DNA of 64,000 bases from Octopus sinensis (taxonomy: Eukaryota). This document shows, piece after piece, positions 2,197-36,401 of this stretch (position 1 is the first letter of the stretch; each line of letters starts with the position of its first letter). The notes beneath the pieces were generated by a model. That model had not been told where the DNA came from and did not search any database. It saw nothing but the letters and a program-made list of their open reading frames with translations. Where the stretch lies: positions 30,132,001 to 30,196,000 of the forward strand of contig NC_043006.1 of NCBI RefSeq assembly GCF_006345805.1, written 5' to 3'. The translations under genes were made by a program, and so were the position numbers.

Positions 2197-2304
2197 TTAG
2201 GCGTTAGTAGATATTTGCTCCGATCTGGGAAGACGTTCTTTCAAGTCATCACGATGAGTGTCGAGGTATTCTCGGAAGAAGGCCACTGTACTGTTCCAGC
2301 CTTG
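2197..2304 (-). CDS. Patatin gene last coding exon (QGWNSTVAFFREYL...STNA*)
   Basis: cttgcag| acceptor, TAA at 2199-2197. Confidence 0.88.
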   Translation of the reverse strand, partial: QGWNSTVAFFREYLDTHRDDLKERLPRSEQISTNA

Positions 2305-5300
2305 CTGCAAGACACAGGATAAACCAATATTAGATCCTTTAAAGAATTAAAGACATAAAAGAATTGATACAAATGAACATAGATGCAGACATGCCAGAAT
2401 TCATAAAATGGAAAATATATACCTCATTAAATACACTGCTTATACATCTGTGAGGATTTGGATGTAGGACAAATAGGCTGATCAGCTTTTAAAAAAATAA
2501 CTTGCAGTTGACAGATCAGTGGTTCTTAAGCTAGACCGGAACACCCCACTTTAAGACATTGAGAATTTGCAAAGGGTGGAAAATGCTTAGGAGATGCTCT
2601 AAGTGGGGATGAATGTTTAGAAGGATAAGTAATATAATATTCAAATCAGGTACAATGCTTATATTTTAAGCACATTCTCAGGTTTAGAATATGTGTTGGA
2701 CATTATATTATCAATGAGCAGAAACATGAACTGACAATGTACTTTGGTCAAAGATAACTCCATTGAATAAGTCCTGGCTTTCTTTAGTAATTTCTATAAA
2801 AGGCGGAACACTGGTCTGCACAAATATCTAAAAAAAAAAAAAAGGGGTCACATGCTGGATAACACAGCAGCCACACACACAGACATAAGTTTCTGGTTGA
2901 TAAACCCTTTTGTAACTGTATTTATTGAGATGCTCTGTGTTTCTTCCAATTACTTTAAATATAACAAAGAATTTAGCAAAATAACTTAGTTATCATTCAG
3001 CTAGTGTTAGGAACATAAATTGTGACTAAGTTTTGGTGGAAGATTTTAATTCAAAATTTATGAAAACGACATTTGTACTCAGAGCCAGTTTCAGCTGGGT
3101 TGGTAATGAAAGGGTTAAAATAAGCCTTTTTTTTCTTCTCTTATTGCAAAACATGAAGAGAGAGCTTTTTTAAAACCTCAAGTGATGAAGTGGTGTGGAG
3201 GGATTTAGCTAGAAACAGTGGTAGACCTAGTGTTTTCCATTTGTTCCTTTTATTACTACTGTGATAGATTTGGCTTGTTTAAGTTTGGAAACTGCATTCC
3301 AGTCTTTTCCAAATTCTCTTGATACACTTTCTTATACAATTTAGTCAAAGAGACAACAGAGAATACAGAAGTTCTGTTACCTTAATCAGGAAGTTTTTGT
3401 CATCTTGTTCCAAAGAGAAATCTGTGGTGTCTATATAACCTGTGTTTATACCAACTGTACGATATCTATCGTCTTCCTAGAAAAGTACCAGAAAATATAA
3501 CAATGAGCTGTAGTAGTAGTAGTACAGATATTAATGATTACACAAATTTTTGACATCCTCAAAGCTGCTTCTAGGAAAACAGCCACTTATGTTTTCATTG
3601 CTGGTGATTTCAATTACCCTGAGATTGATTGAGGAAGCTTTTGTTGGCCACGAAGTGCAAATGATTTCCTTGAATTTAGTGCTGGATTCAAGCAGGACCC
3701 AAGTAGTCACCTCCCCCACAAGATGTAACAACACTTTGGACCTGCTCTTTACCTCTATTCCTGAAATGGTTAACAGTGTCACTACTGGGGAACGTTTGCA
3801 CTACTCTGATCATGCTATGATCATTGCCTTTCTGTCTCTTATGGGCAGGAACAAGAACCACTACTACCTCCAAACTGCTCACTTTGACTGGGAAAATGCA
3901 GATTGGAATTCTTACTGAACTCAGTTACAATGCCCAAACTGGCTTGAATTTTGCAATTCTGCCCTTCAGAACATCCTAAACTCAATCTGGGCTACATTTG
4001 AAACATCAGTACCATGCAAATGCTTTAAAACTCCCAAAAGTACAATTTGGGAGACTACAGCAGTTCGACTTGTCAGGAAAGATTCTTGTGATGATGAACA
4101 GGAATATAGACTACAGAGAAGAATAGAAGGCACATCTTCCAACCATCTCAAGCAAATGACAATAAAAGGCAGTGCTTGAATTTTAACAATTTATAGCAAT
4201 CATCCATGATAGCAAAGTGTTCTGGAAATGTGTACGTTTGAAGTAGAGACCTCACTCTCCAGTTGGCCTTCTTTGCAATCTCCACACAGGTCAGATTACT
4301 GATCACAAAGAATGTGCAGAACTTATTGCTGAATGCTCCATGTGAATCCATATTTAAAATGGATTGTACAGTCTTTAATAACAATGTTGTTGTTAATGGC
4401 AGAGTCTTTAAAAACATCTCTCCATGAAATATTAATTGAAGACAAAACAGTTAAAATTCAGTGTCTAGCTGTATATTTTTCATTTTTCCAGTAACTTTCC
4501 ATTCCTACTAGAAATCTAAAAAACAAACAACTTAGAAGAGCTCAGAGAAATGAGCAAATATTGGTTTTATGGAATCAGTTAACAGACATTATTATCAGGA
4601 ATATGATGCAAGCAATAGAAAAGATAGTCTGAAACTAGTAATTCTAACCAGCAAAACACAAAAGAAAATCTTGCATTCATCATGTTCCTGATATTTATCT
4701 TGTGGAAAATGGTGAGCTAGCAGAGTTGTTAGCATTCCAGGCAATATGCTTAGTGGAATTTCGTCTGTTGTTATCTTCTGAGTTCAAATTCCACTGGGGT
4801 TGACTTTGCCTTCCATCCTTTCAGGGTTGATAAAATGAGTACCAGTTGGGCATTGGAGTTGATAGAATCAGTCACTTATAAAAATGGGACGTAGGATAAC
4901 GAAGGTAATAGTGATAACAAGAGACAAAACAATGACTCTTTCTTCAACATCCATTACAACACTATCTTAATTATAGATTATCACCACTTAACTCGTCAAT
5001 GACAAGATGAAAACTAGCTCTGATGGGAGTGGGGTGAAGGCAGTGGCTGTGTAGGGTTATGATGAATATAGTGATTATAAATTCTGAATGATATAAAACA
5101 TCAATACCACTATGGTGGTGCTGAAGGTAGTCATATAAAGGATTATAGGAACAATAGTAATAAAATAATTTAACATATATAAACTAATATCAATACCACT
5201 ATGAACGCTCGTTTAGTATTCGTCAACATGGTCTCCATTAATGCTGAAAGGTATGATTGTAAACTATTGACTTGTCTGCTACAGTATCCAAGAAAGCGAG

Positions 5301-8300
5301 ACTGGACATTAATTCCTTTTGTTTCAAGAATGTGAATCAATTCTTCATATTCAATCTACAATAAGAAAAGGATTTCTCAGATTCTCACAGATTTTAAAAT
5401 TTGTTAGCAATTAAGATCTTTAATTTATGCAAGAGAAATATATTCCTACACACACAAACACAAATAATTAGAGAAGAAATTTCAAGTGTGAAAGCAAAAC
5501 CTGGAATCAAAGGGCTTTAAAGTTAACCTAGTAAAATATGGCATAAGCATTTTTGGTGGAATTGTTCTAGGAGTCAAGTGATGTTTGTGATATGGCCAAG
5601 TTTCAAAGGAGTATAGTAGAGAGAATAAAAAAGGATTTATAAACAGGTATTTTTGTTTCGTTATTGATACGTCTTTGAGACGAGATCCGAGACTAAACTA
5701 CCAAAAGACTTTGCCATGTTTTGAATCATTGAAGATATTTCTGAATTCAGTGTTCTATCTTTATTCTCTGTGCTCTCAAGGGATATGAAATATTCAGCAA
5801 TGTTAAGAAGATAACCTTTCACATATATGTTTTAGGTTGCTGCACAACTTGACCAGGCAGAGGTTGACACATAAAGTTTTCTTTAAATTTCTAGACAAAC
5901 CATAGATGCCACCTGCTGAATCAAATGCAGAAATCCATGCTCTATATATGACTGGCAATGTGTCAGTCATTAGCATACATTAGCAGTCTCTTATAAGTGA
6001 GAGGGATGCTTTGCTCTTAAATTTCGTCCTTACTAAATTAAAGACACTTACATATATCCCTATATGTATGGGGACACATATATCCCCTTGTTTTGGTCTT
6101 ATAGAGTGTGATAGAACTTTGAATCAAAATACATCACAAAGACAGTAGGTGCATCAAGGTCTCCCTGTTTCACACTACTCTCCACTGCAAAAGGCTCAGA
6201 GAATATGACCCCAAAATTTACTCTGGCTTTCATGTCTTTATGAAGAGCTTTCACTATACTTACAAACTTTTGAAGGAATCCAAATTTTGATTAAGCCAAC
6301 CAGTATAAAATGCTTAAGATCAATAAAATAATGGCAGAGAGTGAAGTTCTGTTCGATACACTTTTCCTACAATTGTGTCTGATTGTGAACATTATCTCAT
6401 TAGTGGCTATTTCTGCACAAAAAAAACACACTGTGACTCAGATACGATTCTTGGCACAATGAACTAAGCACATGCAGCTAAATAACCTGCGTGTGTGTGT
6501 GTTTGTATGCATGTGCGTGCGATAAAACCAACTCCAAAGAGATTGGTGTTGGTCTGCATCAACAAGACTTGTATTATTTATTAAAATAAGCAAAAAGAGT
6601 TGAGGAAGCCTTGCTGAGGAGAGTGGAAAATCCAATGTTTCAGACAGAGTCTTCTGGGAAAATTTGAAAGAAGAGAAATCAATGAGAAATAACAAGAGTT
6701 TTACATTCTCTAAGTTAAGAAAAAAAAAATAGTTGCAGCTGATAAGGAATGCAGGATCACTTGAGCCTTGTACATGAAGGGCAAGTGGTAGGAGAGAGAA
6801 ACAGTGTGAGAGAGGTAGAAAGAGGAATGGAATGAGGAGGGGAAACGAGTTGAGGGATAAAAAAGGGTTCAATGAAGTAAGGGAGGGTATAGGGGTAGAA
6901 GGAAAAATGAAAGCCAGAGCTTCTTTTGACCACTATATAAAAAGTATTAAGAAAAAATGTTATTTAGATATACTTATATTTTAGTTGTTTACACTATTTT
7001 ACACTTGTTTATACTCTTATACATTCAAAGTTCACAAATTTCTTTATTTAAATTATGAATCATATTCCTTTTGATAATATCAACATGATTACAAAACTTC
7101 TTTATAGACGATATTTTCTGTTTGGTTGACACTAATTATCAAATTACTGGAGTCCACTGCTCTACTCATAGCCATGTATAACTGGCTGTGTTTAAACTTC
7201 GGAGTAAGTAAAAATACACTGACATGATCTAATGTCTAGCCATGCACCTTGTTTGCTGTGAATATATGAGCGGAATGTTTAGGGTTGCAAAAAATCAAAC
7301 TGAGACTTACCTCTCACTGTTCTATGTAAATAATGCCTGGATGTTCTGGAACCATGGGTTATTTTGATTGACAAAACTGAGATGTAAACAACAGCTGCTA
7401 CGATTAGCTGTTTCAAATCCTGCTCAAGGCTGACACACTTCAATAACCACCAAATAATCACACACACTATATACTGATACACACTTTTTCCATTTTATTT
7501 TAGCTATTAACCGTCCTTGGGACTCACTTCATATCTACGATGGGGTCACGAACTATGCGATGAAAATCCAGAGTTATTCATGTTCGGTGAATTTTTAATA
7601 AAAATTCGAAGGTGCTTTATCAATTGAAAAATCGATATCCACGAAATAATCATAATTTCTGATTTTTTAATGCTAAAAACATTCCTGATGACCGTCTTTG
7701 TAATCCTGAAAAATATTGTAACCTCTGGCCATGAAGAGGGAACAGACAAAGAGACAGGCATAATGCCCATCTACTATGGGAAATAAAAGGATAGTATCAC
7801 AAATCTAAATCCTCCAAATTCATGAGCTATATGGGGTGGGGGTGGAGGAATCCAGAATTAATCCTCGTTGATGGAATTTTAACAAAAAAAATGAAAGGTG
7901 ATTTATTAATACAAAACTCAATATCCACTAAATAATCACACTTTTTTCACATTTTTTTTTGCTACAAACCTTCCTGATTACCTCCTTTGTAATCTCGATA
8001 AACATCATGACCATTGGTCCAGCCGTTTGACCGTGAAGAAGGAAGAGACATACAGGTAGATGAACATAATGCCCATTATAGTAAGATAAATAGAGAACTA
8101 ACTAAACCACAGACAAAATTTAAATTATTTTTATCAGGCTCATGATTATCAATGAAACATGGTGCCATTCAGATTCTTTAAAGTTCTTTATTCCAAGGGG
8201 CCTGTCCACATCTCTATGAACTTACACACACACACACGTACACGTACACTTGAGTTTACATATGTTCCAATGATAATCTCATATTTACTGTTGTTGTAAT

Positions 8301-11300
8301 GAATTTAGTTTTACCTTATCATCAGAATTTTTGTCCAAAGTCATAAAGATATTCTTAACATCCCGTTCATTAACAATTACTTTGTCAAACAGGAGGAGAT
8401 GGTCTTCTTCATTTAGTTCGGGATCCTGTAGGAAGAAGAACTATTAATACAATTATCAATAATAGCAAATTAAAAATAATAATGATGATGACTTCTTACA
8501 ACAACAGAAGGCAACCCATTCAGTGTACTCTAATTTCATGGGGATTGTTACTGACCCAAAACGTGAAAAGAACATCGAAGGATAAAGCTAAGAACTTTAA
8601 GGTATCTGGTCTGGAATCCTAGCAAATCTGGAGAAGATAAAATTAAGAATTGACAATACAGGAAATAGATTCCATCAAGTGTCAGCGGGGTGAAAACTAG
8701 AAGTAGTCAATAGCTTCTGTTACCTAGGTGACCAAGTCAGTAGCAGGGGTGGATGCTCTGAGAGAGTGACTGCTAGAATAAGATTAGGCTGGGCAAAGTT
8801 CAGAGAGCTCCTACCTCTACTGGTAAGAAAAGACCTCTCCATCAAAATGAAAGGCAGGCTGTGTGAAAACAGCCATGCTACAAGGCAGTGAAACATAGGC
8901 TGTGACTGCTGAGGGCATGTGTAGGCTTGTAAGAAATGAAGCTAGCATGCTCTGCTGGATGTGCAATGTCTGTGCATATACAACAGAATGTAATCACCCT
9001 GAGAGAAAAGTTGGACATAAGAAGCATTAGAGGTAGTGTGCAAGAGAGAAGACCGCACTAGTATGGCCATCTAATGCATATTAATGAGGACACTCACATC
9101 AAGAAGTGCCAAGCTCTAATTGTGGAGGGAACCTGTGGAAGAGGTAGACCCAGGAAGACATGGGACAAGGTAGTGAAGCATGATATTTGAATGTTGGGCC
9201 TCACAGAGGCAATGACAAGCAACCAAGATCTTTGGTGATATCATAGTCATGGCTGATGCCAGTGTCACATAAGTGGCCTGTTAAAAGCAAACTTCAAATG
9301 TTAGGCAATATGCTGTGTTTGTGAAGGCCTGTTAAACCGAGTGAAATCATAGTTGTGGCCAGTTTGACTGGTATCCATGCCAGTGGCACATAAAAAGCAC
9401 TGAGCGTTGGGCCTCATGGAGGCAGTGATAAGTGACCAAGACCTTTGGGAATATACCATGCTGTGTAGACCTGTCAAGCTAAGTGAGACTGTAGTCATGG
9501 CTGACACTGGTGTCAGGTAAATGGCACCCATGTGCCGGTGGCGTGTAAAAAAAACACCCACTAGACTCTCTAAGTGGTTGGCATTAAGAAGGGCATCCAG
9601 CTATTGAAACCTTGCCAAATCAAATTGGAACTTGGTGCAGCTCCCTGGCTTACCAGTTTTCAGTCAAACTGTCCAACCCATGTCAGCATGGACAACAGAT
9701 GTTAAATGATAATGATGATGACTTCTTGAAAAGCTAATTTTAGAAGCAAGTTGAATAATTTAAAACTCTTAAATAATTTCATAATTTCTTTTCATCATTA
9801 TAAAAATAATAAGTATGCATTCTTTATTAATGAAAAGGGTTTGCAAAAAGATCCAGGAGGGGACAGGGTGACATCATGTGGGATTATATTAAAAAAATTA
9901 AAATACTTCCCCACTTTTATCCACCTTTCAAAAAATTTGCTGGTGGGGTAGCACTTCCCTCTCCACCCTCATTTTTCTTTCCAAGTGAAACTTGAAAAAG
10001 TTGAAGGTTTTGCCAAAGAGAAAGGTATGTTTTCAGCCCTTTCAGGCTTGTCCATCACACAACCTCTTTCCTCAATGCCATCAGACAAATGAAAACTGTC
10101 TGCTCCAGCCAAAAGAAGGTGGCAAGACAAGCTTCACAATGGCATCAGTGTATAACCATCCTACATGTGATGGTAGCTGTTCAACGTAACCCCACAAGTC
10201 AGCAATGCTGGTTCATTAAATTGGCAAGAGTTTATCTTGATCTGGTGGTGCCACTAGGGGGCACTGCCAAGTGAAAGAACTCTGGAAATTACCCATAGTT
10301 GTCCTAACCCAAAAGTCTTCCAGAACATACTAACCAGTATGTTTATGTAACATGGTATAATTATAAACGGCAAATTTTAGCCATTTCTCCACAGACTGGA
10401 AAAAATGAAGAATAACCTTAATCGATATTCAAATCTTATTGGGGTCTCATCAGAGGCATCTACATCATTCTGACAGTCTCCAGAGAAATGAGCAACCAAA
10501 CTGTTTATATACTCAACAAATGCAGCAGTTACTCTGTGAAGGAGTCCCTAATTTGCATACCAAAAGTGTTTAACTCTATAAATACCAGCAGCCTGTCGAT
10601 ATTCAGAGTACCTCTGAAAATGATGTCACTCTTTCCTTCCACTAATCCTCTATAGAATGAAACATCCAACTGTCCCATTGCATGACTAATAAAGAGTAGT
10701 GAGTGCCAGATAATATTCTAGATGTCAGGTGCCCTGTCTTGATCTTTGTCTTAGACAGCATTTCTGTCAAGGAGATGAGCTGTGAAAAGATATAGCTCAT
10801 ACATGGTGCCCTCCACCATTTCACCATCTTGGGATCTCTGCAAGTAGCACAGCCTAAGTGTATGTTTGCACATCAGCAGGCCTGCCTAGTCTACCATTCA
10901 ACAGATGAAATACCTGACAAGTGGAATGTATCCATTCTACAAGAAGCAGAATAATAGATGTCCCAATCTGATGAGCCAGTAACTGGAATAAGGCACAATG
11001 GAAATAAGGTAGACATTTGCAATCCCCTACCTACCCTTTCAGGGACAGTTTATTCTCAACCCAAATTTTGGTAAGACTGTCTACTCTAGTTGTAACCTAA
11101 CACAAGTTCCAGTTCACTTGGAGGTCAGAACGAATACAGATCCAAGTAGTTTAATGGGTTCATAAATCTAGCATCTAAGGATGTCATTCAATGAGCATAA
11201 ACCTGCCTCTGGATACCAGGCAGAAAGTGTCCACTCACTTAGCCCCCACCACCTTCTTGTATTTGTTTAGAATAGCGCTGACCACCACACTTCAGTGACA

Positions 11301-14300: not shown

Positions 14301-17300
14301 AGCCAGAAGACATTTCATCCCATTTCCTTTTGTGATTGATCTGGTCAATGTAACATATAACAAACTCATCAATGCTTTTAGAATGGTTGGATGACATATT
14401 CTATGTGTTGCATAGAAATGTCAGGTGTCTCTGATATAGTGGGTTAGGGGAGTACTAAAACAACCTGAGATGGCTAAAAATACTGGAATAGAATGTGAAA
14501 TTTTAGAACACAAGAAACAAAACATTCAAAAGACATGTATTTCAAGAGAATATTGTTTTAGAACAATGTTTGCGTTCAGTTTACAACTCACAAGTAAAAC
14601 AGCAATGAACATGTCCATATTAATGGTTGTTTGGCGTTCTGGGTTGTGTTTAGCAATGACCTGAAAAATAATTTGAGAGTTTTTATTCTAATTAATTTAT
14701 TGCATTAATTTAATTTATATTAAAACACTTGGCTTAATGGAAATACAATGAAGAAGAAGAAATACAGTGCCTCTGAGTTTTATGTTTGCCTAGATTATAA
14801 TATGCACAACCAGGATCATTGCTGTTTACAACTGTTTAAAGAGATACTAAATATAAATTAAACTGAATAATTAGAAATATTAAAACACACATATAATGTT
14901 TTGTATAAACACACACATCTGTATGTATGTCACGAGCCCTCGTGGACACGGGCTGCTCAACAACCCTAATGACTCCAGAAGTGGTAGAAGAATGGAGTGG
15001 AGTGAGTAGTGTAAGGGCTGTTGACAGTATGGAAGTTGAATGCAGAGGAAGTACCGATGTGGAGATGGTGGTACAAGGAACAAGATTGAGGTTGCGGTCT
15101 ATTGTAATTGATTGTGTAGTGGACTGGATCGATGTCATGATGGAGATGGACACCATTGTCCGCTTGGGAGGTGTTACAGTCAATGAAGCCAGTATAGTGT
15201 TCGGTGATGAGGGGGCGCTGTGAGTTCGCGACAGGAGAGTAGAGTGATTTTTGAGCTGTGTTCGATGGCCAGCAGTGGACAGTGGAATGGCACTGGAAGG
15301 GAGATCCTCTGACATTGAAAAACACAGTAGGCTGCTATCAGCATACCCTGAAAGGGGATGCCAGAAGCGATTTCGAGGGAGAGGTGGACTGGTGGATCAA
15401 GGAAGGTATTCTGATTCTTGGAAGGAGGAAGTGAAGATTGAAGTGCTACTGCTGATGGCAGTGGTGCAGACGGCGAAACAAAGTCAGGCCAGTATTCCGG
15501 GAGCTGAACAACCATGTATTGTGCCATACGGGCGGTGAAGCTATGGACATTTGTAGTGAAACTTTGAGAGAGTAGAGGCAGATGACAAGGGCCTCCACAA
15601 TCGTCAACTTGACGTCAGTTTACCTGCAGCTGCATGTGGCTGAGAGACTGGAAATATCAGCTGGTAAGGTATAAGGGACAGATATACTGCCTGACCAGGT
15701 TGGGATTCAGGCTGAATTCAGCACTGAAAATTATGGCGACAATTCTCAAGACCATCCTGGGAAAGGCTGACAAAATGAAAAGAGCCACCAATTTCTATAT
15801 CGATGGCATCCTGGTGGATGAGAGCATACTGTTGGCAAAGGAGGTCATAAGCCACCTGAAGAGTTTTGGACTAACTGCCAAACCACCAGAGGCAATGGAA
15901 AGAAGAGATGCCCTGGGACTCAAGCTATGGAGAGACAAGGCTGGCATGTTGGTGTTTCAGAGAGGAAATGAGATCCCAGAACTGGGCTCAAAGATGAGTA
16001 GACTGGAATTGTTTTCTGTATGTGGAAAACTGTTGGGACACTACCCAATTGCAGGATGGCATGCAGCTTCATCAAGAGGCGAGCTCAAGGAGTGAGGTGG
16101 AGTGATAACGTGGGCAAGAAGACAACTGCCATGATGCAAGAAGTCTTGGAGAGGGCGACTGCAGAGGACCCAGTAAGAGGGAACTGGTATGTGCCCAAAT
16201 TGAAGAAGGGGATCGTGTGGTGTGATGTCAGCAGCATAGCGACAGGAGTTTTCCTGGAAATTGGAGGTGTTGTGGTGGAGTATGCAGCCTGGCTTAGGAA
16301 GAAGGACGACTGCAACCACATCAACGTGGCAGAGCTGGATGCTGTGCTGAAAGGGCTGAACCTGGCTTTGAGGTGGGGGCTGCATGCCATCAAGATCCAG
16401 CCACTGTACTTAGGTGGGTGGGATCAGTGATCACAGGCGAGTGGAGGGTGTAGAGATGCTGATAAAACACTATATGGGAATTCTGAGTGAGCTAGCCGCC
16501 AAGTTTAACCTGAGGCTGAGTGTGGTTTTGTGCCCTCAGAGAAGAATAGAGCGGACGTCCTGACCAGAGTAAAGAAAGCCTGGTTGCAGGTGCCAGAGGA
16601 TCTGGAACAAGGAGTGGCTACGGTGTATCGACTGAGTGACTCGGAGCTGAGGAGATTGCATATCATGCATCACATGGGGGTGGACAGCACCCTGTTCGTA
16701 GCCAGGAAAGTTGACTCTGACATGACTAAGTAGAGCGTGCAAAGAGTAGTTGGGAGCTAAGACAGGTACCAGTCCATTGACCCCACTCCAGGTGTGCATA
16801 AGGCACGAAGCATTCCAGTGGAACACAACTGGAAACGACTGGCAGTGGACATGATGCACTACCGGCAGGGGACATGCCTCTCAATGGTCAACTGCGGACC
16901 GGGGCAGTTGGCCATATGGAGAGAGATGAAGATGGGGTCCAGGGAAGAAATTACAAAAATACTGAATGAGGTATTCCTAAAACAAGGCCCTGTGGATGAG
17001 CTGCTTGTGGACAATAGCACTGCGTTTTGCTTGGAGGTGCTGGGAGAAATGCTCGAAAAGTGGTATGTCAGCTGTTTCTTCAGGATGGCATACCGGGCAA
17101 TGTGGTTGTTGCGAGGCATCATCATACCATCAAGACCATAGCAGAGAGGGGGCCACATCTCACTGGTCAAGGCTGTTTTTTGGTATAATATGTCACCCAG
17201 CATGGGACAGGCTGAGGAGTCAGTGCCATACATGGCAATATTCAAGTATGAGTGGAGGCATCCATGTACTGCATCGTCACATCCCACAGAAGAGAAGGAG

Positions 17301-20300: not shown

Positions 20301-23300
20301 TTAAACATAATGAGATTTCTAAATTTATAAAACAAATTGTTACAATTCTATAATACTTCATTTTAATGAGATTACCTCAAGTTTAATCAAATTCTGAAGG
20401 AATTTTTTGAAATACAGTCTTAGGAAATCCTGCTGTTCTTGTACAAAGAATCCTTGTCCGGTACTGGATTGATTCTAAAATCTAATGAGTTTGTGCTAGT
20501 CTTAAGGTCAAACATCCCTGAAAGTTTCATCTGAATCCATCCAGTGGTTCTTGAAATATCTTGTCCATGGACAAACAAACAAATACGACTGAAAACAATA
20601 CCTCCACATTCGCTAAGGCGAAGGTAATAATAAAAGAGAATTGTCTATATGTTTGCTAAAACTCTGAGCTGTTCATATATTTCTATATCTTTGCCATGCT
20701 CTGTCCAACTTATCGCTGCTCCTCTCAAAAATCAAACCAATTCACCACCAGGCCTGTCAACTACCAGTCCAATCAAATAACCCATATTAGTAGACACAAC
20801 ACATCTGCACTCCTGTATAGTCCTGTAACAACATCAGCAGCTAAACCAACAGCCATAAATCTGCCATTATTGTCTTAAGAAATCAGGGGAGCCAAATGAA
20901 GACCCCCCCTAGGCCTTATAGTAATAGTCATGAAACTATAGCAGTGAACAAGTAAATAATAAAATAGGAATTATAGTAGTAACAGTGGAATTATAATAGT
21001 GAACAAGTAAATAATAACCTAGAATGATTAACATGTGGCGTTGTGTAACCATTGAGTTGTTGGCAACTAAACTGGCAAACCCACTAAACTTGCTTGGTGA
21101 GGAGAGTGGATTTTCGACACTCTGCAGGATTAAAAACAAAACCTGGGAAAGGGCAGTGGAACTCATAAGAGTCAATGGCCATTCCAAAAACGAATAGACA
21201 GAACTCATGGGCCTTGGTTGGCAGTCAGTCTAGGAGAAGGAACACTGATTTAAAAACCGAGGTAGATAGGACTCCTTAATCACAGTGGTGACAACCTGCC
21301 AGTGTCAACAGCTTCATGCCTGGGATGAAGACAAATGAACCGGGAATCAGAACTTAACTCTGAAGCATTATTTGGATGAAGATAAGGGACCAACTGATGT
21401 TCACCTATCTCCTAGTGAGAATCATGATCATGGTCCCCAACACACAGAAATGCGAAGGGAACAGGCCCAACTTATGGGTAGTAAGAGCTCTGCAGTTTTG
21501 GTTGACAATCTTATTAGAAATGGTGTCTTGATAAAAATACCGGTTGGTGGTTAACCTTAAAATACAAACTTCACTATTGGTTGGCGAAGGAGTGCTTATA
21601 AACAGAAATATGCATGACACTAGTATTTGCCACGACTACAATTTCATTTGATTTGATGGGTCTTCTTAAGCACAACATAATGCCAAAGGTCTCAGTCATT
21701 GCCTCCGTGAGACCCAATGCCTGAAAGGAACTCACCTCCATGAGCTTGAAAGAAAACAGTTGTATAAAGAAATGCCAACTGCTTAACTTGAATCGAACCT
21801 GTGAGAAAAGAGGATCCAAGAAGGTGTGGGATGAAGTGGTGAAATCTGATCCCAGGATGTTGAGCCTCATGAAGAAGATGATATGTGGTGCTGAAGAATA
21901 CTTGCCCATTTATGCCAGCACAGTGAAAATTAGGTTCTAGAAATGTGTATGCACACCTCAGGATCGCTCAGTCAATATATCCTTATCAAGCTTTCAATTG
22001 CTGCTTTGCCATCTTTTCATCTACCTATCACTCATCCCTCCATCACTTTTGTGTAATTCTGCAACTCATTAAAGGAGGGCAAAATTACATATCATGTAAT
22101 TATCTTTTATGTTCTGCTAGTCATCACTCTCTCTTCTCTGAATACTTCCTGTTGACATCTATCCCGCATTTTAAACTTTGTTCCTCCTTTCCTATATTTG
22201 CTATTGACCACACCCCTTCTGTGCTGCCAATAATCTCTACATCTCTCTCTCTCTCTCTCTCTCTCTCCTGTACTACTTCCCCTTGACAGCTGTCTTTCAT
22301 TCTTAACATTGCACCCTCAATCATATTTACCACTGACCATCTTTGTTCACCGTTCATTACATTCTCTCCAATATATGTATAATCATACATGCAATGTGTA
22401 TTACAATTGTGCCTATATATGTACAATAAGAACTTGCTTGGATAGTTTGGTTTCTGGGTATTTATTGAGTTTATAACATCTGTATTCTTTGAGTCGGTTC
22501 TCCAAATAGGTCCGCATAATCTCTGGTTCATCATCTGAAAACTAATTAGGTTAAAACATTGTTTGTAAGTAAAGAACTTTGATTAGTTTATACAAGTACA
22601 TAATTTATATTAACTGGAATGTGTTCCCTAACTTGTTCACACACACACACAATTATTATCATAAATGGTTCCTTTGTCCTTTTCTTCATGATAGCATAAA
22701 CCAGAAACATTTGCAGTATGGCAGCTTTCCAAGCAGTTCAGTCCTGCAAAATTTATAGTGTGGCACCCATGCTACACCAGTGTAGCACCATGACCATTAC
22801 TTGCCAATTCATACATTGAATAAGGTGTATATGCTATCTAGGGACCATTTAGTTCTGAATATATCCAACTTCAGCAAGCACAGCCCAGTGCTAGCAACAT
22901 GACACCAATATGCAAATTCTTCTTCAACTAATTAATTTTTCAAAACAGAATTACCTTCATATATTGTAAGCTGAGTTGTTCACTAGTTAGAAGCTAAATA
23001 AATATATCATTCATACTAAAGTGAAAAATAAAATTTCTTTAGAAGAGTGGAAGTAACAAGCATTTTATTCATTGAAATACAACAATAAAAAAAAAACAGT
23101 AACATAATAATAATAACAACAACATACCAAGAGAAATCCAAGAGTCTTTTTATTAAAGGTACCAAATCTGATTGATTTGTCAAAGAATTCGTGCAATTGC
23201 TCAAGAGGACGAAGTCGACTAATGAAATTATCTTCTGGTGCCATTGAAAGCCACCAACCTGGAAAAGAAAATTAACTTTTAAACAAAGAATTTATATTAC

Positions 23301-28000: not shown

Positions 28001-31000
28001 ACCCTCCCAATCTCCTCTTCCACCTGTTCCTCAGTCTACCTCGCTTTCACACTCCATTTACCTCAAACGCAATCACCCTCCACAGAACATGCTCTTCATC
28101 CCTCCTCAAGACATGCTCATACCACCTCACTCCATTTGCCCTTACCAACCATTTCATCGATTCCTCCAACCTCAGCATTCCCATCAAATCCTTAGTCTTC
28201 CTCTTATCAAACAGCTTCAACCCACATATGTGTATAATACAATATCTATGTATAATATTAATTGAGTAAAAATTCTTTTGGTTCACTACATAAACTAGTT
28301 TACGCACTTAACTATATACTTATCAATATAGCTGCTTTCAGTTACATGGATCTTCTGCATACAATAGTAACTGTTCTCAATACCATGGTGGCTCTGTGTA
28401 CAGGTCAGCTGAAGAAGTAGAAGTTTAATGAAGTCCAAATGAACGCATTTCGAAACTGTGCTTTTAACTGAATCCGTAGGGAGAGTTACAAGGATTAGTT
28501 TGTCCAGACAAACGGTCAGGACACAAATTGCAAGAAAAGAATAGCAATGTGATGTATGACAGGAGAACTTGTGAGTGATTTTGACCAACATATTGAAATA
28601 TGAAACTTACCATCAAAACAATGGATTGGATAATTGCACAGAAGTCCTCCATCAACATAATGTTTCATTGTTCCATTATTGGCAGAATACTTTGATGGAC
28701 GAAAGATTACAGGGATGGACATTGACATACGCACAGCAAGGCGTACAGGCATATTTGGAGTTGTCTTTGGGTGGCAATATTCAACAGCCATGTGGTTAAC
28801 ATTAGTCACAACCACGCATAATTCTCGCTTATGATGTTTGTAGATCTTGGAGAAGAGAAGAAATGAAATCAACATTTGAGTTTGGCATGAAACTTGATTA
28901 AAAAGAAAAAAAACATTGAATATGTATTTACTATTTGAAATTATTTTATTAGAATTTTACTAATTTTTTCCTTCCAAACCAACAACAGTATATAATTCCA
29001 GTATATTTTAGTAATCTTAAAGGAATGTCAAGTAAAATTGATTTTGGACATGAAATAAAAGTGATTCAAACCTGATATCTTCTTGTCCTATAAATCAAAA
29101 ATTGGTTTCAAATTCTGGCACAAGACCAGCAATTCGATTACATTACTCAACTGGCATTTATTTTATTGACCCAAAAGGATGAAAGCTGAAGTTGACATCA
29201 GCAGAATTTGAAATTAAAACATAAAAACGGACGAAATGCTGCCAAGCATTTTACTTGGAATGCTAATGATTCTACCAGCTTATCACCTTTATAAAAATCA
29301 TTAAAATACAAAACATTTAATATAAAAATTCAAAATCAACAAAAGATGTTTATATATTGGTTATATGTTTTATATTCTTAATTGTCATCAGGAAAGCTTC
29401 AAATATCTTTATCAATCAGTTCAGTCCACTGAAAGAAGAGATTATTAAGTAACATTAATGAGTGAAGAGTATGAAGGCAGTTTATCCAGGATGTATTCCA
29501 GATACATTTCTTTTTTACTATTTCGATGTATTTCACATCTCCCTCTCTATTTAGAAATATTGGATAATGTCACTGACATATGTTGACAAAATGATGTTCT
29601 ACTTTAATTTATCTAACTGTAAAAGAAACTAACTTACTAATTTGCATTAATGAGCTAATTAAGACTCATTTATAGTCTCATTTCTATTTGCCTCTGTGTT
29701 GTCACTTAGTTCAGGAAACTTTAGAACAGAAACTATAGGGTTTAAATAGTAAATCATAGAATGATGAGAACTTACAATAAAGATGGAATGGTCACAGATA
29801 GAATATTGGTTGGTAAATCAAGTTCAACTCAAAACAGTATGTTGTCTTAGTTCCTGTGAAAGTAGATTGTTCTTAGACATTTAACTATCTTCACAGAAAA
29901 TCCAAACATGGACATGTAATGTGAGTAGTGTAAAATAGATTAAAGTTTAATGGTGAATTTATTAGGAACAGAAGTTGACTAAGAAAACTTGAAAAGAAAT
30001 ATTGATATCTCACAGATGAAATAACAGTGACTAGATCTCACAGATGATATGGTACAAGATCATGATACATGGAAAGTAATTGCATTGATGACAATAAAAG
30101 TTATGACAACTACAACACTGGTAGCTAGTGATGACACTGATGACAACGATTGGCTAATGATATCTATTTCTGTACTAATAATCAACCAGAAAGTTAGAAA
30201 ACACTCACCTCCCAGAAAGTAACATCTGCATTGCCAGTTTTTTTTTCAAGTACTTTTTTAAACCATTCTTCAATTCTTTTGCCATGATTCCAGCCAAAGT
30301 TCTTGATTAGGTTTGGTAAAAGGCTTAAATATCCCCATTCATGATCTACAAGAAAAAAATTAAAGCAACAATGTGACAGTTGATTATAGTTTTGGTAACA
30401 AGATATATACATCTTCAACTGCTCCAAGCGACAAATGTGAAAATAAACTTCTCTAGAAATTTAATCATCAAACATATTTGTTGTAGATTCTTTGTTTGGC
30501 GTATGCTCATTTTCATAAAAAGTGGTAAAGTGTAGTAAATAATTTACATTATCCTAATATATAACTGGTACCTTTTTTATTGAACAAAGTAGCATTAAAA
30601 TTATAATTTAGTCTCAGTAGGAATTGAACTTAGAAATATAAGAGTTAGAATCAAATGTCTTCTAATACAGCATCCTAGCCTCTGAACCATAACTATTACA
30701 TTATATGCATACAGGGAACATAGTTGCTTTCATTTAAATGTAGCAGTCATATCTTCCTCAACAAGTCTCTAACTATATTTTTAAAACGGCACCTATATCT
30801 AAAGACTTAATATAGAAGTAGAAGAGCTACAGCTCATATTTTCAGGTAACTGCTAAGCATTTGATTGGTTACCTGTGTCATGTGACATTACAGAAAACCC
30901 AACCTCATTCCTCTGTGCAGAGGCAGCAGTAGATTATGAAAGAATTGGATCAGAAAGCAAAATAAACATAACTACTCTAATGACTATATATAATTGTGAA

Positions 31001-34000
31001 AATCAGTCTTGTTCATAGTCACAAACATACTGAGATGAGGTTGACTAAAGGAGATTGCTTGTTATAATGATTTCCATCGGCTTTGAGATGCTACAAGTGA
31101 CTATGACATATTGGGAGTTGGTAGGTTGAAGAGTTTGCCCTTTTTAGGAATGAGATATAATTATGTGTTTCAATAAATTAAAATAAATCTCATTAAAAAG
31201 ACATATTTGGTGAGGACAGAAGCTGGCTTTGGAGGTCAACTGTTTGTAAGAAACTGCTAACCAGTTGCCTCATCAAATTTGAGTAATTGAAGGTACTTTC
31301 ATACTTGAGGACTGTGCAAGATAGAGGCAGAAGAGGGGAAGCAGCGTGTGATTTAGCTTTGTCAGCAAGATTCTACAGATTCAATTTGGTTGATGAGTGG
31401 CTGGTAGAGAGTTTGCATGCAAAGCACTGAATGAAGACATCCTTTACATCCCAGATAATATCTTAGTTCTCAGTTATTGATAATGACTGACCTTTCCCTT
31501 GTGTTTTATGCAATAAGCTTTACCACTGAATCATAGCTTCAAGTGAATTGGAAACTTGAAGTTGTGGGCTTGTTGTGTAACTGATATGAAGAGTTGTACC
31601 AAAAAAGATGCTGTGAAATCCTAATACTCCATAAAACTACATACAAATACGACCATCACTAGCTTGTGATATCAAGACTTTCATAAAACCAAGGTTTGAT
31701 ACAAACACAAATAGCATTACTTTGATAAAGTATCTTCACCTTCCATAAAAGTATTATATTGATATCCCTAATATGTGAAAGCCACACCCTCTCCAAGTAA
31801 TTACAGTACAATATTAATATCTATATTATCATGTGATAGCTGCATCTTCCATCAAATGATCATAATTATTTAACATCCCTTTTTCTATGATGGCAGGGGT
31901 TGGACAGGTTCTATGTTTGTTTTGGCCCTTTCTAGTGCCAACCACTTAACAAACCACTTACATGGCACTAACACCAATGGGGTCACCAAGTAACCACAAG
32001 ATAAGACCCCTCAACAGTAGTATATCAATATCCCTATTATGAATATGATGGCCGCACATTCTGCTAAAATGTTATAGTAGTACTTACCAAGCATCAACTT
32101 GCCAATGTCTTGACCTAAGTAGTCCAAGAGCTCATCACTTGAAACGCCAACACTGATTAATGCAGCAACCATTGCCCCAGCACTTGCACCAGCTAGGCGT
32201 TTTATATTATTTAATACACCAAGTTCTTCAAGTACCTAGAAAACAAAAGAAAACAACAGTTCAGTTTAAAGAAAAAGAGAATAACAATAACAACAACATC
32301 ATTGTCATTGTTAGCAACATCCTCCTGACCTGTGGAGAGCTACACAGAGCATGCCAGAATATCATATTTCTACTCATCTCAGTTCTGAAAATAGTTTCAT
32401 AGGTAAGGTGGCGGTTGACAATTTCTATTACTGCATCAAAGTTCTCTGGAACTACTTGCTGATTGATACCTACTAATGCATTAGCAGGTTGTGTTTCTGC
32501 TTCCTGTAGATGGTCTGTGATCAACAAGCTCAAATCCATTTCGTTACTATTTCTGTCAGACTTCTTAGCCTTCCTTCTCTTATGACAAACATGCTGGTCT
32601 GTCCAGTGGGTGTTTCCATTTGGATGCATCATAGGTGAGTTTCTGATTGCCCTGTTCAGTCCTTGATTTCAGTTACTTTTGGATTTTCTCTATCCTATGA
32701 GCATATGGTTGCCAACATGCATCTGGCATGGTTTCGTTTATCAAACAATTTTTTAGCTCTCTTTTCTGGTTGAATCATCCGGGATGATCTGATTGTGCAT
32801 TGTTCCTGCTGATATTGGTCTCGTGTTAGGCACTGGCTTCACACTTGTCTTATAGTGTGCACTTGCATTGTAATTCATCATTCCTTTAAGACTCTCTTGT
32901 TGTGGATCTTACAAGGAGTCTTATAGGAATGCACAGCAGACTCTGTTTGCAACGTATTGGCCACTTGCTGGTCAGTTGTTTCAAGCGTATCCCCCTGCCC
33001 AGTCTAATGAGTATTTCATAATCAGATCTTTCTCGTAGGACTTTCTTCTGAAGGTGGGAGATTGAGGTTTGCATGGCAATGACACCTCTGGCTGCACTGT
33101 TTGGTATATAGTTATTCAATGGGCAACTCATTGCTTGCTTTAAAACCTGCAGACACCAGTCTCCAAAAACATCTTGCTTCCTTGAGGCATGTCATTTAAG
33201 AGTTTGTATTTGGAGTATTCCAGATTCATAACAACTTTCAAACCATCTTTGATGTTTTTTTTATTGCTTGGTTGATACAATCTTCTGTTTTGACTTTGCC
33301 TGTATAATCAAAGAGAGTCATATCTGTATCAGATTTTTCTTTTTAGCATCAGTGAAATCTTCTGGAATGAATGCCAATTCTGCTTGCTTCATATACTTCT
33401 CAAATCTTTCAAGTATCTCAGTGGTGTCAGTACCTTGACAGAATGGTCCTTGGCTCCTTATAGAGCTGTTGTGTCTATCAATTAACAGTTCAGAAACTCA
33501 TTGGTAGATGAAATGTCTTATTTTCATAAGTCAGGACTGGATTGAATTCAAAGGGTTATAACCCTGCTATTAAAGTAATATCATATGTACATGGGCGGAC
33601 CAGGGGGTCCCTGAGAAGCATGTCCCCCCCCCCCCTCAGGAAAAGAAGTGTGCCCTTCTAAATAATGTTATTACACTCTTTCCTCCTGGAATTGTATTCT
33701 ATCCTGACTTCATGCCCTCCCTTTGAAAAATTCCTGGGACTGTGCCTGCTGTAGATTAAACAGAGACCAGGACACAATGCATCGTCAGGGATTATGTACC
33801 AAGGGAACATTACAGGAAGAAAGACTCTCTCTCTCTCTCTCTGCATTTCAGGAGTCCACAACTTGTAAGAGTGTTCAATTCCTGTTCTATGCAGGTAACA
33901 AAATCGTACAAGGAAGATAACTCCCTATGGCGATTCACAGAACATGCCAGAATATCACATTTATCATTCTCAATGCACAGTTTATTTGGAACTTGGTATT

Positions 34001-36401
34001 TTTTTTCTTTTCTCTCATCTTGCTTATTTCCATTTCAAGGTCCTTGTATTTTGATTTAATTTTTTATGCATCATTTGATCAAAGTATCTAACAATTTATA
34101 GATTTTCATTCCTGTCTTTGCTTATGGCATTCTGATGGTTTGCTTTGATCTCCTTGTCAATCATATTCTGTATCATCATAAACATAGCTACGACTTTTTC
34201 AGGTGAGTAAGAGCACTGGAATGTCTGTATTAGGCATATTGTTGGCAGAGAAATAATTAAAGGAAGTGGGGTTATCAGTATATGATAGAATAATTAATCT
34301 CAGACAAGTGACATGTAACAGAAATATTGATCTTTGAACATGTAGCACAAGCATTCACCATGAAGTTTATCAATCCAAGAAGTTGCTCCACCCACCACCT
34401 TCATTCTAACATTGGTCCCCACCCCCTGGTGGACTGTGGGATCCAAGATTTAGTGACATTATTTGCTTAGGATTGTTGGCGATTTTTCACCAATAGTAAC
34501 TAGCCAGCTCTTTCTCGTCTGCGGTCTTTGGTACTTCTTGTCTTTTCTGCTGCACTCAAAGTGTTTGCAGCTAAGAGAGTAGAGATTCCTCCGCTATCAT
34601 CATCATCAAAACATCTGTTTTCCATGCTGGCATGAGTTGAACAGTTTGACAGGAACTGGCAAGACTGGAGAGTGCACCAGGCTCCAGTCATCTGTTTTGG
34701 TATGGTTTCTACAGTTGGATGCCTTTCCTAACACCAACAACTTTACAGAGTGTACTGGGTGCTTATTAGTGGTGCCAGCACAGGGAAAATACATGTGTGT
34801 GTGAAAATATTCTAGCCTCCACGACAATCTCAAACTACAATATTACAGAGTGTAAGGTTATGCTTTAGGACATCTGTGAATTTCAATTGTGGTCTTCCAT
34901 AGTAACATTTTCTTGTATTTCAGAATAAAAAATGGTCTCTGGTAGTCATTCATTATCTATCCTTTGAGCACAACCAATCCTGTAAAACAGATGTGTGATA
35001 ATCATTGCCTCAACCGTTGTCTTTTCTGTTTGTTCTTGGAATATTAAGCGTTGCTTTTCTTTTGCTTTTGGTTAATTGCAAGAAGTAGATGAAATTTGGT
35101 GTGGTTCTGATAAGGAATCCACATTTTACAAGCATAAAGAAGTGCTCTGGCAACTACTGCTTGGTAGAAATTATCAGCAAACATCTAGCTTTCGAAGTGG
35201 GTTCAATTCTCAGACCCCTGATGGTCTTCCACACCATAACAGAAGAATTGAAGAAGATAATTATTTGTGGCAGCTCCTGTATGTTGAATCTTTTTATCAC
35301 TCTCCCTCTCTCACTCTTTTCCCCTCTTCCTCCCTCCTTCTCTCATTATCTAGCTCTACTGGTTCCTATCTCTTTTTCTCACTTACTTCCTCCTCCATTA
35401 ATCATTGATGATACACATCATTCTCTCATTTTCATTACTCCTTTATCATCCTGTCTCCTTTCCCCTTTATGGTTTCCTCACCAAAATTCAGCAGATGGGT
35501 TTCTATATCAGTCTTTCGATATTCCCTCTTCTATCACCCTTTTACCCAAGTTCTTTCAGTTTCATCACTTTCTGGGTCAGTTTGATTTTTAGTCTTGCTG
35601 AAGTTAAGACAACCTCTCCAGTGCTGGTGCTATGGTATTAGGCGGCGAACTGGCAGAAACTTTAGCACACTGGGCGAAATGCGTAGCCGTATTTCGTCTG
35701 CCGTTACGTTCTGAGTTCAAATTCCGCCGAGGTCGACTTTGCCTTTCATCCTTTCGGGGTCGATAAATTAAGTACCAGTTACGCACTGGGGTCGATGTAA
35801 TCGACTTAATCCGTTTGTCTGTCCTTGTTTGTCCCTTCTGTGTTTAACCCCTCGTGGGTAGTAAAGAAATAGGTATTAGGAAAGGCAAATGGTTATTAAA
35901 AAGTATGTCAAAATTGAACCTCTAAGTAATTATGTGGTCTCTAGCCCATCTATGGAAGCATTAACTTCAAATAAGAAATTAGTGGGTACTGATGACTTAT
36001 CCAAACTATGACAGTACAGAAGGCACACACAAAATGATTATGATGATGACAACAACAATAACAATGACATTGATAATAATGATGATGATGCTGTATCCTA
36101 TGTAAGCTTTCAATCTGCTTTAAATAAATGTAACTCATAGAAAAACATAAAATCTCACGTGTAAACAACCACAATAAGCAATGCCTTTATTTCCACCACC
36201 TTCAAACACCAAATTCTCAAAGGGGTATTCATAGTCTTTCAAATCTATAAGTTGTGCTTTACTAGTATCAGGGAATTCCATGGCAGAAGCACTCATTTTT
36301 CTTGAAATGCATTTTTCCTCCTCACACATAACTAATTCATGCAATTCAGAATTGGATTTGGACTGATTTAATTTTCCACAACATTTTGTAACATTTCCCA
36401 T
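2197..36401 (-). CDS. Spliced gene: patatin-like phospholipase (ExoU/VipD/YqhO-like) with internal EF-hand module, 12 coding exons, 541 aa
   Basis: Exons 36401-36159, 32235-32088, 30345-30209, 28845-28611, 23258-23128, 22541-22438, 20206-20122, 14660-14592, 8425-8315, 5355-5197, 3476-3381, 2304-2197 total 1626 nt with compatible phases and no internal stop. Motifs LVFEGGGNKG, GASAG, YVDGG; EF-loop DKNSDDKIEYEE. Confidence 0.9.
2905..3114. mobile_element. piggyBac-type MITE
   Basis: CCCTTT...AAAGGG termini flanked by TAAA/TTAA; second copy at 63140-63326. Confidence 0.7.
3381..3476 (-). CDS. Patatin gene exon 11 (EDDRYRTVGINTGYIDTTDFSLEQDDKNFLIK)
   Basis: ttttctag| acceptor, AAG|gtaaca donor, 96 nt; RTVxIxTxxIxTTDF matches the C-terminal pattern of bacterial-type patatins. 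Confidence 0.9.
3520..4420 (+). mobile_element. Decayed CR1/L2/Jockey-group LINE (APE endonuclease)
   Basis: FIAGDFNYPEI, PTRCNNTLDLLFT, SDH, DWENADW motifs with frameshifts. 4150-4420 may be a minus-strand LINE 3' piece. Confidence 0.7.
4711..4870 (+). mobile_element. SINE family B (Nin-domain-like), decayed
   Basis: ctgagttcaaattcc...gactttgccttccatcctttcagggttgataaa matches 35640-35877. Confidence 0.75.
5197..5355 (-). CDS. Patatin gene exon 10 (IEYEELIHILE...NSLQSYLSALMETML...FIV)
   Basis: attgtag| acceptor, GTG|gtattg donor, 159 nt; completes the EF loop. Confidence 0.88.
7480..8088 (-). mobile_element. Helitron/Helentron-like non-autonomous element with internally repeated modules
   Basis: Related modules ending cataatgcccat (~7760, ~8065); terminus ttatagtaagat. 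Confidence 0.4.
8315..8425 (-). CDS. Patatin gene exon 9 (DPELNEED...IFMTLDKNSDDK)
   Basis: cctacag| acceptor, AAG|gtaaaa donor, 111 nt; first half of the EF-hand loop. Confidence 0.88.
8680..9720 (+). mobile_element. 5'-truncated RTE LINE with 3' UTR and (GAT)n tail
   Basis: Colinear with 41690-42957 (KLEVV.SF.YLGDQV; GRGRPRKTW); ends atgataatgatgatg. Confidence 0.85.
10460..13230 (-). mobile_element. Heavily decayed L1/Tx1-type LINE
   Basis: Minus-strand remnants RPGYW (post-endonuclease), GALIS...VDH, KVNDHLSE..QG...SP..YVL, SVFVDNITI (YADD region), KYKKVVGAK. Confidence 0.6.
14592..14660 (-). CDS. Patatin gene exon 8 (VIAKHNPERQTTINMDMFIAVLL; degenerate EF-hand)
   Basis: tttttcag| acceptor, CTT|gtgagt donor, 69 nt, phase 0-0. 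Confidence 0.75.
14930..17609 (+). mobile_element. Decayed Ty3/Gypsy LTR retrotransposon pol (protease-RT-RNaseH-integrase)
   Basis: ALVDTGCS (protease), YCLTRLGF...YIDG (RT, YIDD mutated), WCDVSS...HINVAELDA...NRADVLTR (RNase H), HHMG...WKRLAVD...DNSTAF (integrase); many frameshifts. Confidence 0.9.
17687..18014 (+). mobile_element. 3' LTR of the Gypsy element
   Basis: Follows G-rich PPT (agagtgggggggggggcg); begins TGTGGTGT and ends ACATCACA (imperfect terminal inverted repeat). Confidence 0.65.
18377..18792 (+). mobile_element. Solo LTR (Gypsy-type), CpG-rich
   Basis: TGTAGTGA...TCGTTACA termini, 4-bp TSD AACC (18373-18376 / 18793-18796), AATAAA at ~18666. Confidence 0.75.
20122..20206 (-). 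CDS. Patatin gene exon 7 (KSRNQNSSMKMEECTKHENICSAFDKLTQ)
   Basis: ttttacag| acceptor, CAG|gttagt donor, 85 nt, phase 2 to 0. Confidence 0.8.
20371..20627 (-). mobile_element. Putative non-autonomous Helentron (HINE/DINE-1-like)
   Basis: Terminus TTATTACCTTCGCCTTAGCGAA...GAGGT with a short hairpin; internal aagtttcatctgaatccatccagtggttcttga motif and acaa repeats. Confidence 0.45.
21660..21905. mobile_element. Two oppositely oriented RTE 3' fragments
   Basis: 21660-21730 minus (LGLTEAMT) next to 21740-21905 plus (KKCQ...KVWDEVVK). Confidence 0.6.
22438..22541 (-). CDS. Patatin gene exon 6 (FSDDEPEIMRTYLENRL...ETKLS), GC donor
   Basis: aattag| acceptor; open frame; AA|gcaagt donor gives the phase 2 needed by exon 7. 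Confidence 0.75.
23128..23258 (-). CDS. Patatin gene exon 5 (GWWLSMAPEDNFISRL...KTLGFLL)
   Basis: ttttccag| acceptor, TTG|gtatgt donor, 131 nt, phase 1 to 0. Confidence 0.9.
23300..23911. mobile_element. Tc1/mariner (Tigger/pogo-like) MITE interrupted by a SINE
   Basis: TA|CAGTAATCCCTC ... GGGGATAACTG|TA termini. Confidence 0.6.
23388..23792 (-). mobile_element. tRNA-derived SINE family A, near full length
   Basis: Minus-strand head gcaggagtggctgtgtggtaag (box A)...gggttcagtccc (box B), internal (TA/TG)n, tail gactgaaacaagta. Confidence 0.9.
24088..24470 (-). mobile_element. tRNA-derived SINE family C
   Basis: Minus head ggaggcgcaatggcccagtggttagg...ggttttgattccc (A and B boxes); CpG-retaining. 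Confidence 0.8.
24540..24720 (+). mobile_element. piggyBac-like transposase fragment
   Basis: LSSDESLARTK followed, after a frameshift, by MQYL...HHKWDIK, resembling the SIDESM...QYxPxK...KWGIK motif. Confidence 0.5.
24880..25365. repeat. Compound (CA)/(TA)/(TG) microsatellite field
   Basis: Direct inspection. Confidence 0.9.
25669..25985. repeat. 53-bp minisatellite, 6 units
   Basis: Unit catgtatatagaggccagtgagtgagataaagggagagcagaggaccaatggg starting at 25669, 25722, 25775, 25828, 25881, 25934. Confidence 0.95.
26868..27222 (+). mobile_element. tRNA-derived SINE family A
   Basis: gtggtaagaagcttgcttcc...ggattcagtccc...gactgaaacaagtaaaa. Confidence 0.85.
27228..27428. mobile_element. Foldback/MITE with ~50-bp terminal inverted repeats
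   Basis: tttatttcccaacataaagtggcagtcctgatcaggaccaatgttactg vs cagtaacattggtcctaaccaggactaccactttacattggcaaataaa. Confidence 0.75.
27870..28225 (-). mobile_element. RTE LINE 3' fragment (second family)
   Basis: GVRWYEHVLRRDEEHVL motif; (CAT)n tail on plus. Confidence 0.7.
28611..28845 (-). CDS. Patatin gene exon 4 (IYKHHKRELCVVVTN...AVRMSMSIP...YVDGGLLCNYPIHCFD)
   Basis: ctccaag| acceptor, G|gtaagt donor, 235 nt; catalytic DGG motif. Confidence 0.94.
29100..29290 (-). mobile_element. SINE family B, decayed
   Basis: ttattgacccaaaaggatgaaagc...gaatttgaa, reverse match to 35640 copy. Confidence 0.65.
30209..30345 (-). CDS. Patatin gene exon 3 (DHEWGYLSLL...FGWNHGKRIEEWF...DVTFWE)
   Basis: ttgtag| acceptor, GAG|gtgagt donor, 137 nt, phase 1 to 0. 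Confidence 0.92.
32088..32235 (-). CDS. Patatin gene exon 2 (VLEELGVLNNIKRLAGASAGAMVAAL...KLML)
   Basis: tctag| acceptor, G|gtaagt donor, 148 nt; GxSxG nucleophile elbow. Confidence 0.93.
32290..33520 (-). mobile_element. Highly decayed non-LTR retroelement remnant (clade uncertain)
   Basis: Coding-like composition with broken frames and a simple-repeat tail near 32280; no clean motif. Confidence 0.3.
35640..35877 (+). mobile_element. SINE family B (Nin-domain-like), young full-length copy
   Basis: ggcggcgaactggcagaa (A box), gagttcaaattcc (B box), gcctttcatcctttcggggtcgataaa..agtaccag core; ggtatta repeated at both ends; CpGs intact. Confidence 0.9.
36159..36401 (-). CDS. Patatin gene coding exon 1 (MGNVTKCC...LVFEGGGNKGIAYCGCLH)
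   Basis: Acceptor ttcag|TAAAATG (exon begins 36405, ATG at 36401); donor CAC|gtgaga, phase 0; Gly-rich oxyanion motif. Confidence 0.92.

Follow-up and report, generated by a model that had tools for sequence, protein, structure and literature searches.

A gene on the minus strand of the stretch of Octopus sinensis DNA analyzed here (64,000 nucleotides of contig NC_043006.1, hereafter referred to as the window) codes for what its motifs indicate to be a catalytically intact patatin-type enzyme, that is, a lipid acyl hydrolase, with a predicted pair of EF hands inside the patatin fold. Patatin enzymes are inactive until opened by a partner, and, to our knowledge, those of animals are classed as Ca2+-independent. 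Our preferred reading, put forward tentatively but as a serious possibility, is that the product is likely a membrane-anchored phospholipase, whose predicted EF pair, placed in the regulatory segment, likely lets Ca2+ open the lid. The combination of patatin and EF-hand domains can already be seen in the automatic annotation of databases; a full-text literature search, covering the main text of non-subscription papers, returned no paper on such a family, and EF hands go unmentioned in a 2026 review on patatin activation (PMC12871566).

The exon set was defined by a tblastn search of the Octopus protein LOC115216174 (P0001), which is the top database match to exon 4 (99%), against the window. 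The resulting features, together with the exon of a neighboring paralogue, are the following:

36159..36401, minus strand: exon 1, with Met1 (MGNVTKCC, likely acylation anchor) and the oxyanion motif GGGNKG at 36200-36183
32088..32235, minus strand: exon 2, with GASAG and the nucleophile Ser99 at 32184-32182
30209..30345, minus strand: exon 3, based on tblastn and a 137-nt contig gap
28611..28845, minus strand: exon 4, with AVRMSMSIP and DGG; catalytic Asp241 at 28653-28651
23128..23258, minus strand: exon 5, with the family-specific GWWLSM stretch and strand 5 (TLGFLL)
22438..22541, minus strand: exon 6, where the insert begins; GC donor
20122..20206, minus strand: exon 7, long helix running into EF1
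14592..14660, minus strand: exon 8, degenerate EF1 loop at 14645-14610, without Asp3, Asp5 and Glu12
8315..8425, minus strand: exon 9, entering helix of EF2 and EF2 loop residues 1-7 (from 8335)
5197..5355, minus strand: exon 10, end of the EF2 loop (Glu12 at 5343-5341), end of the insert and long regulatory helix
3381..3476, minus strand: exon 11, strand 6 (TVGIN) and predicted lid loop at 3443-3411, from alignment to VipD
2197..2304, minus strand: exon 12, C-terminal patatin helix and stop; contigs continue to ~2065
63804..63830, minus strand: last coding exon of the tandem paralogue LOC115216501 (P0002), the remaining exons lying just past the window

Joined by their coordinates, the 12 coding exons give a protein of 541 aa with zero internal stops, which differs from LOC115216174 at 3 of 506 residues, the database protein beginning at Met36. 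Ten of the 11 introns are GT-AG; the other one, intron 6 (window 22437-20207, minus strand), is GC-AG, and its joint is confirmed by the loose end of a contig at 20206 that reads the end of exon 6. The joints were also followed in contigs of runs presumed to be RNA, though not recorded as such, in which the joints themselves are spliced: the five joints of exons 7-12 can be seen directly in contigs from four runs of two studies (four joints in all four runs, one in three); a 1431-nt contig covers exons 1, 2, and 4 with a gap of 137 nt, the size of exon 3; and a 1760-nt contig carries exactly 1002 nt ahead of exon 7, the summed length of exons 1-6. The sequence-only reading, which had spliced 12 exons into 541 aa with GGGNKG, GASAG, and DGG intact, is thus borne out by the joined exons and the spliced contigs, and its own caveat, that transcripts might not join these exons, is answered by the splice joints that the contigs carry. 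On the 5' side of exon 1 an AG acceptor precedes position 36405, so a further exon exists upstream, and a contig bears 107 extra nt at this side; Met1 (MGNVTKCC) is thus taken as the probable start codon. High-copy intron repeats, under very deep contig cover, are found at window 23184-24875, 26568-27695, and 34464-36155. Intron 9 (window 8314-5356) interrupts the EF2 loop, and coral, hemichordate, and gastropod gene models break at the same point, which suggests that this intron position has been common since before the cnidarian-bilaterian split.

The features of the patatin/PNPLA superfamily are present in the product, namely a Gly-rich oxyanion loop (GGGNKG, aa 68), a GxSxG nucleophile (GASAG, Ser99), and a DGG aspartate (Asp241), with TLGFLL at 293; PF01734 matches it with an E value of 1.1e-30 (107.7 bits, cut-off 27.7). 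The dyad is conserved throughout the family (Ser in 143/147 and Asp in 146/147 eukaryote-type sequences). The structural model described below contains the sheet-completing strands 258-264 and 446-450 and the C-terminal helix 463-491 (P0001 numbering); strand 5, strand 6, and the C-terminal helix are used here as defined in section 4 of PMC12871566. Among solved structures, the closest by sequence are VipD (E 1e-16) and ExoU (2e-9), also PlpD, and iPLA2beta does not appear among the 24 sequence matches at E up to 1. In the fold comparison, VipD comes out on top (3e-11), with CapE and CapV next (~1e-9), and iPLA2beta (1.9e-5) and cPLA2 (1.1e-3) further down. Both rankings favor the proposed likeness to ExoU/VipD/YqhO-type patatins rather than to vertebrate PNPLA, the comparison with PNPLA1-9 being one with iPLA2beta, the sole solved member, which falls far below VipD by sequence and by fold. 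Databases label relatives of the octopus protein as YqhO-like, and cd07207 is presumably the CDD label for the ExoU/VipD/YqhO-like group. Narrower assignments were rejected: VpdC (curated model score 74.9, against a 1000-bit cut-off), CBASS lipase (score 21, against a 200-bit cut-off), and the VipD/ExoU/VpdC class of secreted effectors, as matches are limited to the catalytic core and host-cofactor-binding C-terminal domains are absent.

Between strand 5 and the next helix, the octopus protein holds an insert of 152 aa that starts in exon 6 and ends in exon 10, in close agreement with the earlier estimate of about 150 aa, from exon 6 to mid exon 10, in place of a short bacterial linker. The insert measures 135-166 aa in 49 of 50 family rows (the remaining one, with 118 aa, is a truncated model), against 10-25 aa at the same site in 10/10 EF-less outgroup patatins of bacteria; inserts of animals and bacteria can be aligned over their whole length (HHalign probability 99.9). 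An AlphaFold2 model based on a 92-sequence alignment (pLDDT 91, pTM 0.88) predicts for the insert a long helix and two helix-loop-helix units with paired short strands (EF-pair helices 295-331/341-348 and 369-379/389-398, strands 338-340 and 386-388; P0001 numbering), with the patatin frame intact. The idea of an EF pair inserted within the patatin fold is therefore reinforced by both insert length and predicted structure, the latter speaking against an insert devoid of EF fold. Parvalbumin, S100A4, and centrin match part of the fold, with probabilities of 0.93-1.00 but E values of 0.08-0.12, and the best EF matches of the family profile in the PDB are calmodulins.

The location of this insert is what would link it to enzyme control. 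According to PMC12871566, the regulatory segment of patatins begins at strand 5, ends at the C-terminal helix, and is where allosteric control is placed, and the lid of VipD is the loop Thr376-Pro386, opened on Rab5 binding. VipD strand 6 and lid align by HMMER to the octopus TVGIN-TGYIDTTDF, in a weak, sub-threshold third stretch of the alignment; taken with the definition of the regulatory segment, this puts the EF pair in the lid-bearing segment, and the insert is predicted to be located just upstream of the loop aligning to the VipD lid. Under our preferred reading, N-terminal acylation would hold the enzyme at the membrane, Ca2+ on EF2 would shift the long helix 453-472 and the lid 486-496, and the resulting lid opening would replace the external activators (Rab5, ubiquitin) of VipD and ExoU. 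The calmodulin matches also lend themselves to the opposite sign of control, in which Ca2+ would inhibit and the EF pair would act as a built-in half-calmodulin brake, by analogy with iPLA2beta; inhibition of this patatin-domain enzyme by calmodulin with Ca2+ is a documented form of Ca2+ control (Ki ~23 nM, PMC5823874). Such a brake appears improbable, as VipD and ExoU, the nearest solved structures, rest closed and are opened by ligands, an analogy that favors activation.

The EF1 loop is NPERQTTINMDM at aa 367-378 and the EF2 loop is DKNSDDKIEYEE at aa 415-426, the latter divided by intron 9. EF2 presents D1, N3, D5, I8, and E12, with Asp at position 6 and flanking helices in the model, and EF1 presents Glu3, Gln5, and Met12 in place of ligands; the original description of a near-canonical loop (Asp for Gly at position 6) with a degenerate partner holds when these residues are set against 147 relatives. 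Across those eukaryote-type sequences, EF2 has Asp1 in 137, Gly6 in 134, and Glu12 in 134, and EF1 has Asp3 in 102, Asp/Asn5 in 109, and Glu12 in 130. In bacterial sequences Glu12 is kept in both loops (33/33) and Asp6 is found in EF2 of 10/33. As EF ligands are kept across animals and bacteria at ~35% identity, selection for ion binding is indicated, and Ca2+ binding by the family is very likely. Within it, the octopus copy belongs to the most degenerate members for predicted Ca2+ binding and is hence a weak example, although judging from its loop residues it likely has one, possibly weaker, Ca2+ site. In the domain search suggested by the sequence-only reading, the patatin domain of the octopus protein was recovered and EF-hand_1 stayed under its cut-off (23.1 bits against 25.4, E 4.8e-5).

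These features leave room for a different reading, in which the family would be Ca2+-regulated but the cephalopod EF module would be a vestigial scaffold, the enzyme being Ca2+-independent or partner-controlled. All four full-length cephalopod proteins have lost Asp3, Asp5, and Glu12 of EF1 and have EF2 Gly6 replaced by Asp or Asn, and all four score under the Pfam EF cut-off, which six of seven scanned non-cephalopod relatives pass; the octopus EF1 loop is just 33% identical to that of the squid-type protein. Moreover, many divergent members in other clusters retain the insert though their EF loops have decayed, indicating that the insert fold can persist without EF ligands. We nevertheless consider a vestigial module rather unlikely: EF2 of the four cephalopod proteins, with an insert identity among them of just 50-79%, keeps Asp1, Asn3, Asp/Asn5, Ile8, Glu9, and Glu12, so that positions 1, 3, 5, 9, and 12 remain oxygen ligands, and Asp/Asn is the most frequent substitute at EF2 position 6 within the family. 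In terms of lid opening by Ca2+, EF2 would be the sole Ca2+ binder of cephalopods, probably weaker than in other family members.

Missed in the sequence-only reading was the N-terminus, which in the window starts MGNVTKCC, with Gly2 and two cysteines, Lys6 being off the strict myristoylation pattern. The MG start is likely a lipid anchor and seems typical of the family, being present in about half of the animal proteins: 51/104 non-bacterial proteins of at least 480 aa start with MG and 43/104 fit a myristoylation pattern (the entries, isoforms included, not being independent). Several other non-bacterial members carry an MG-type start internally. The coexistence of MG starts and EF hands in those 51/104 proteins could also mean that Ca2+ acts on location or assembly instead of on the lid, through a myristoyl-switch-like membrane move or through oligomerization, and the fold matches do include patatins whose structures were solved as filaments or dimers (CapV, CapE, iPLA2beta). 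We regard this as a poor candidate, given that the EF pair is retained in bacterial members, where the MG start is lacking (1/45 listed ORFs begin with it, starts being picked mechanically), and EF function therefore predates the anchor or does not need it; besides, recoverin-type switches have four EF hands, against two here.

Homologues had been foreseen as uncharacterized proteins, and these were indeed found from sponge to amphioxus, in a protist and in bacteria; the designation "invertebrate enzyme family" proved too narrow, the same layout including the EF pair being present in bacteria and in at least one protist. Named members belong to molluscs, cnidarians, the placozoan Trichoplax, an annelid, a bryozoan, a hemichordate, and echinoderms, and further ones to the sponge Oscarella, amphioxus, nemerteans, and the kinetoplastid Papus. 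Four clusters of the ESM Atlas have the patatin and EF domain set, one of them 73% bacterial. When 185,579 species genomes were scanned, 42 loci were obtained, 39 of them of the patatin/EF-hand family, intronless and in myxobacterial and actinobacterial bins; besides the seed genomes, full-length matches were present in 3/300 drawn genomes of the myxobacterial phylum and 0/400 of the actinobacterial phylum. Searching 1.84 billion representatives with a profile contributed 77 new full-length clusters among the 128 new rows of the best 150, and among these best 150 rows are decayed-loop, Ser-less, and sterol-sensing-fused forms.

The tree was calculated on core columns only, leaving out the EF insert, for members of the EF family and EF-less patatins. 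Bacterial EF forms constitute one clade (support 100/99), and the EF family is split from EF-less patatins with 100/100 and 100/99, support that drops to 69/87 once divergent rows are included through a profile alignment; eukaryote monophyly of the EF family is neither recovered nor rejected (p-AU 0.28). Because octopus and bacterial proteins are ~34-39% identical over ~470 columns and the bacterial spread is patchy, one cross-domain transfer of the gene is likely, and we lean, by inference, toward the direction from eukaryote to bacteria in view of protist presence and bacterial rarity.

Directly upstream of the octopus gene, the tandem paralogue P0002 (G000:C10:30.196-30.251 Mb) shares its exon layout, with one extra terminal exon. 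Four distant octopus paralogues map to G000:C11:22.89-22.93 Mb (L079-L082) and C1:118.016 Mb (L051-L052); the catalytic Ser is absent from the three C11 copies, which read GVGTG, GVGTG, and GMGSG at that motif and GCG in the oxyanion loop, one starting MGNQSS. The C11 copies are likely pseudo-enzymes, and comparable Ser-less clusters occur elsewhere in the family. Three long proteins (P0263, P0334, P0326) fuse an NPC1/Patched sterol-sensing region to a family patatin, two of the three with Pfam EF-hand matches; this putative fusion, seen in protein records, could be a sterol-coupled membrane lipase of marine protists. Downstream of the myxobacterial-clade copies, a permuted papain-like C92/NlpC-P60 gene was found in 4/4 scanned (L001, L002, L003, L006), one with a weak LRAT match, hinting at a lipid-remodelling pair.

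For the family as a whole, a broader reading is conceivable, held with more reserve than that for the octopus enzyme: these phospholipases, lipid-anchored and activated by Ca2+ itself via an EF pair in the lid-bearing regulatory segment, would form an ancient family and represent a separate route from Ca2+ to lipid signal, older than the animal radiation and shared with protists. Myxobacteria and actinobacteria would have acquired the family by cross-domain transfer, and its diversification would have produced forms with a dead sensor, forms with dead catalysis, and fusions to a sterol-sensing region. No evidence for a role in venom, immunity, cell death, or secretion was found in the present sequence analysis. 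If these patatins do have their own Ca2+ sensor in the regulatory segment, they would offer a self-contained test of the VipD-derived allosteric model, and a candidate Ca2+-coupled generator of lipid signals in sponges, cnidarians, molluscs, echinoderms, and amphioxus. The intronless homologues of environmental bacteria (490-530 aa, with two well-formed loops) would make for easy biochemistry, the main value of the octopus copy being that of a natural sensor-reduced comparison, and the cross-domain spread of the family adds an evolutionary question.

In relation to known systems, the octopus protein has the same order of oxyanion loop, GxSxG, DGG, strand 5, strand 6, predicted lid, and C-terminal helix as VipD (PDB 4AKF, 4KYI) and ExoU, but not their Rab5- or ubiquitin-binding C-terminal domains; its regulatory segment comprises ~200 aa with the EF pair, against ~72 aa in VipD (Table 1 of PMC12871566), and, unlike Legionella VipD and Pseudomonas ExoU, it is encoded by an endogenous, intron-containing animal gene. 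CapV and CapE of CBASS, with fold matches of ~1e-9, are ligand-gated patatins, gated by cyclic dinucleotides according to the titles of the structure entries; no cyclase was found among the scanned neighbors of patatin/EF-hand loci. iPLA2beta/PNPLA9 likewise combines a patatin fold with Ca2+ input via an EF-hand protein, but calmodulin is there separate and inhibitory, and the ankyrin repeats of iPLA2beta are absent from the octopus protein. Finally, cPLA2 (group IV) has a related Ser-Asp fold and is Ca2+-dependent, using an N-terminal C2 domain for Ca2+-dependent docking (PMC11621833), whereas the octopus protein has an internal EF pair.
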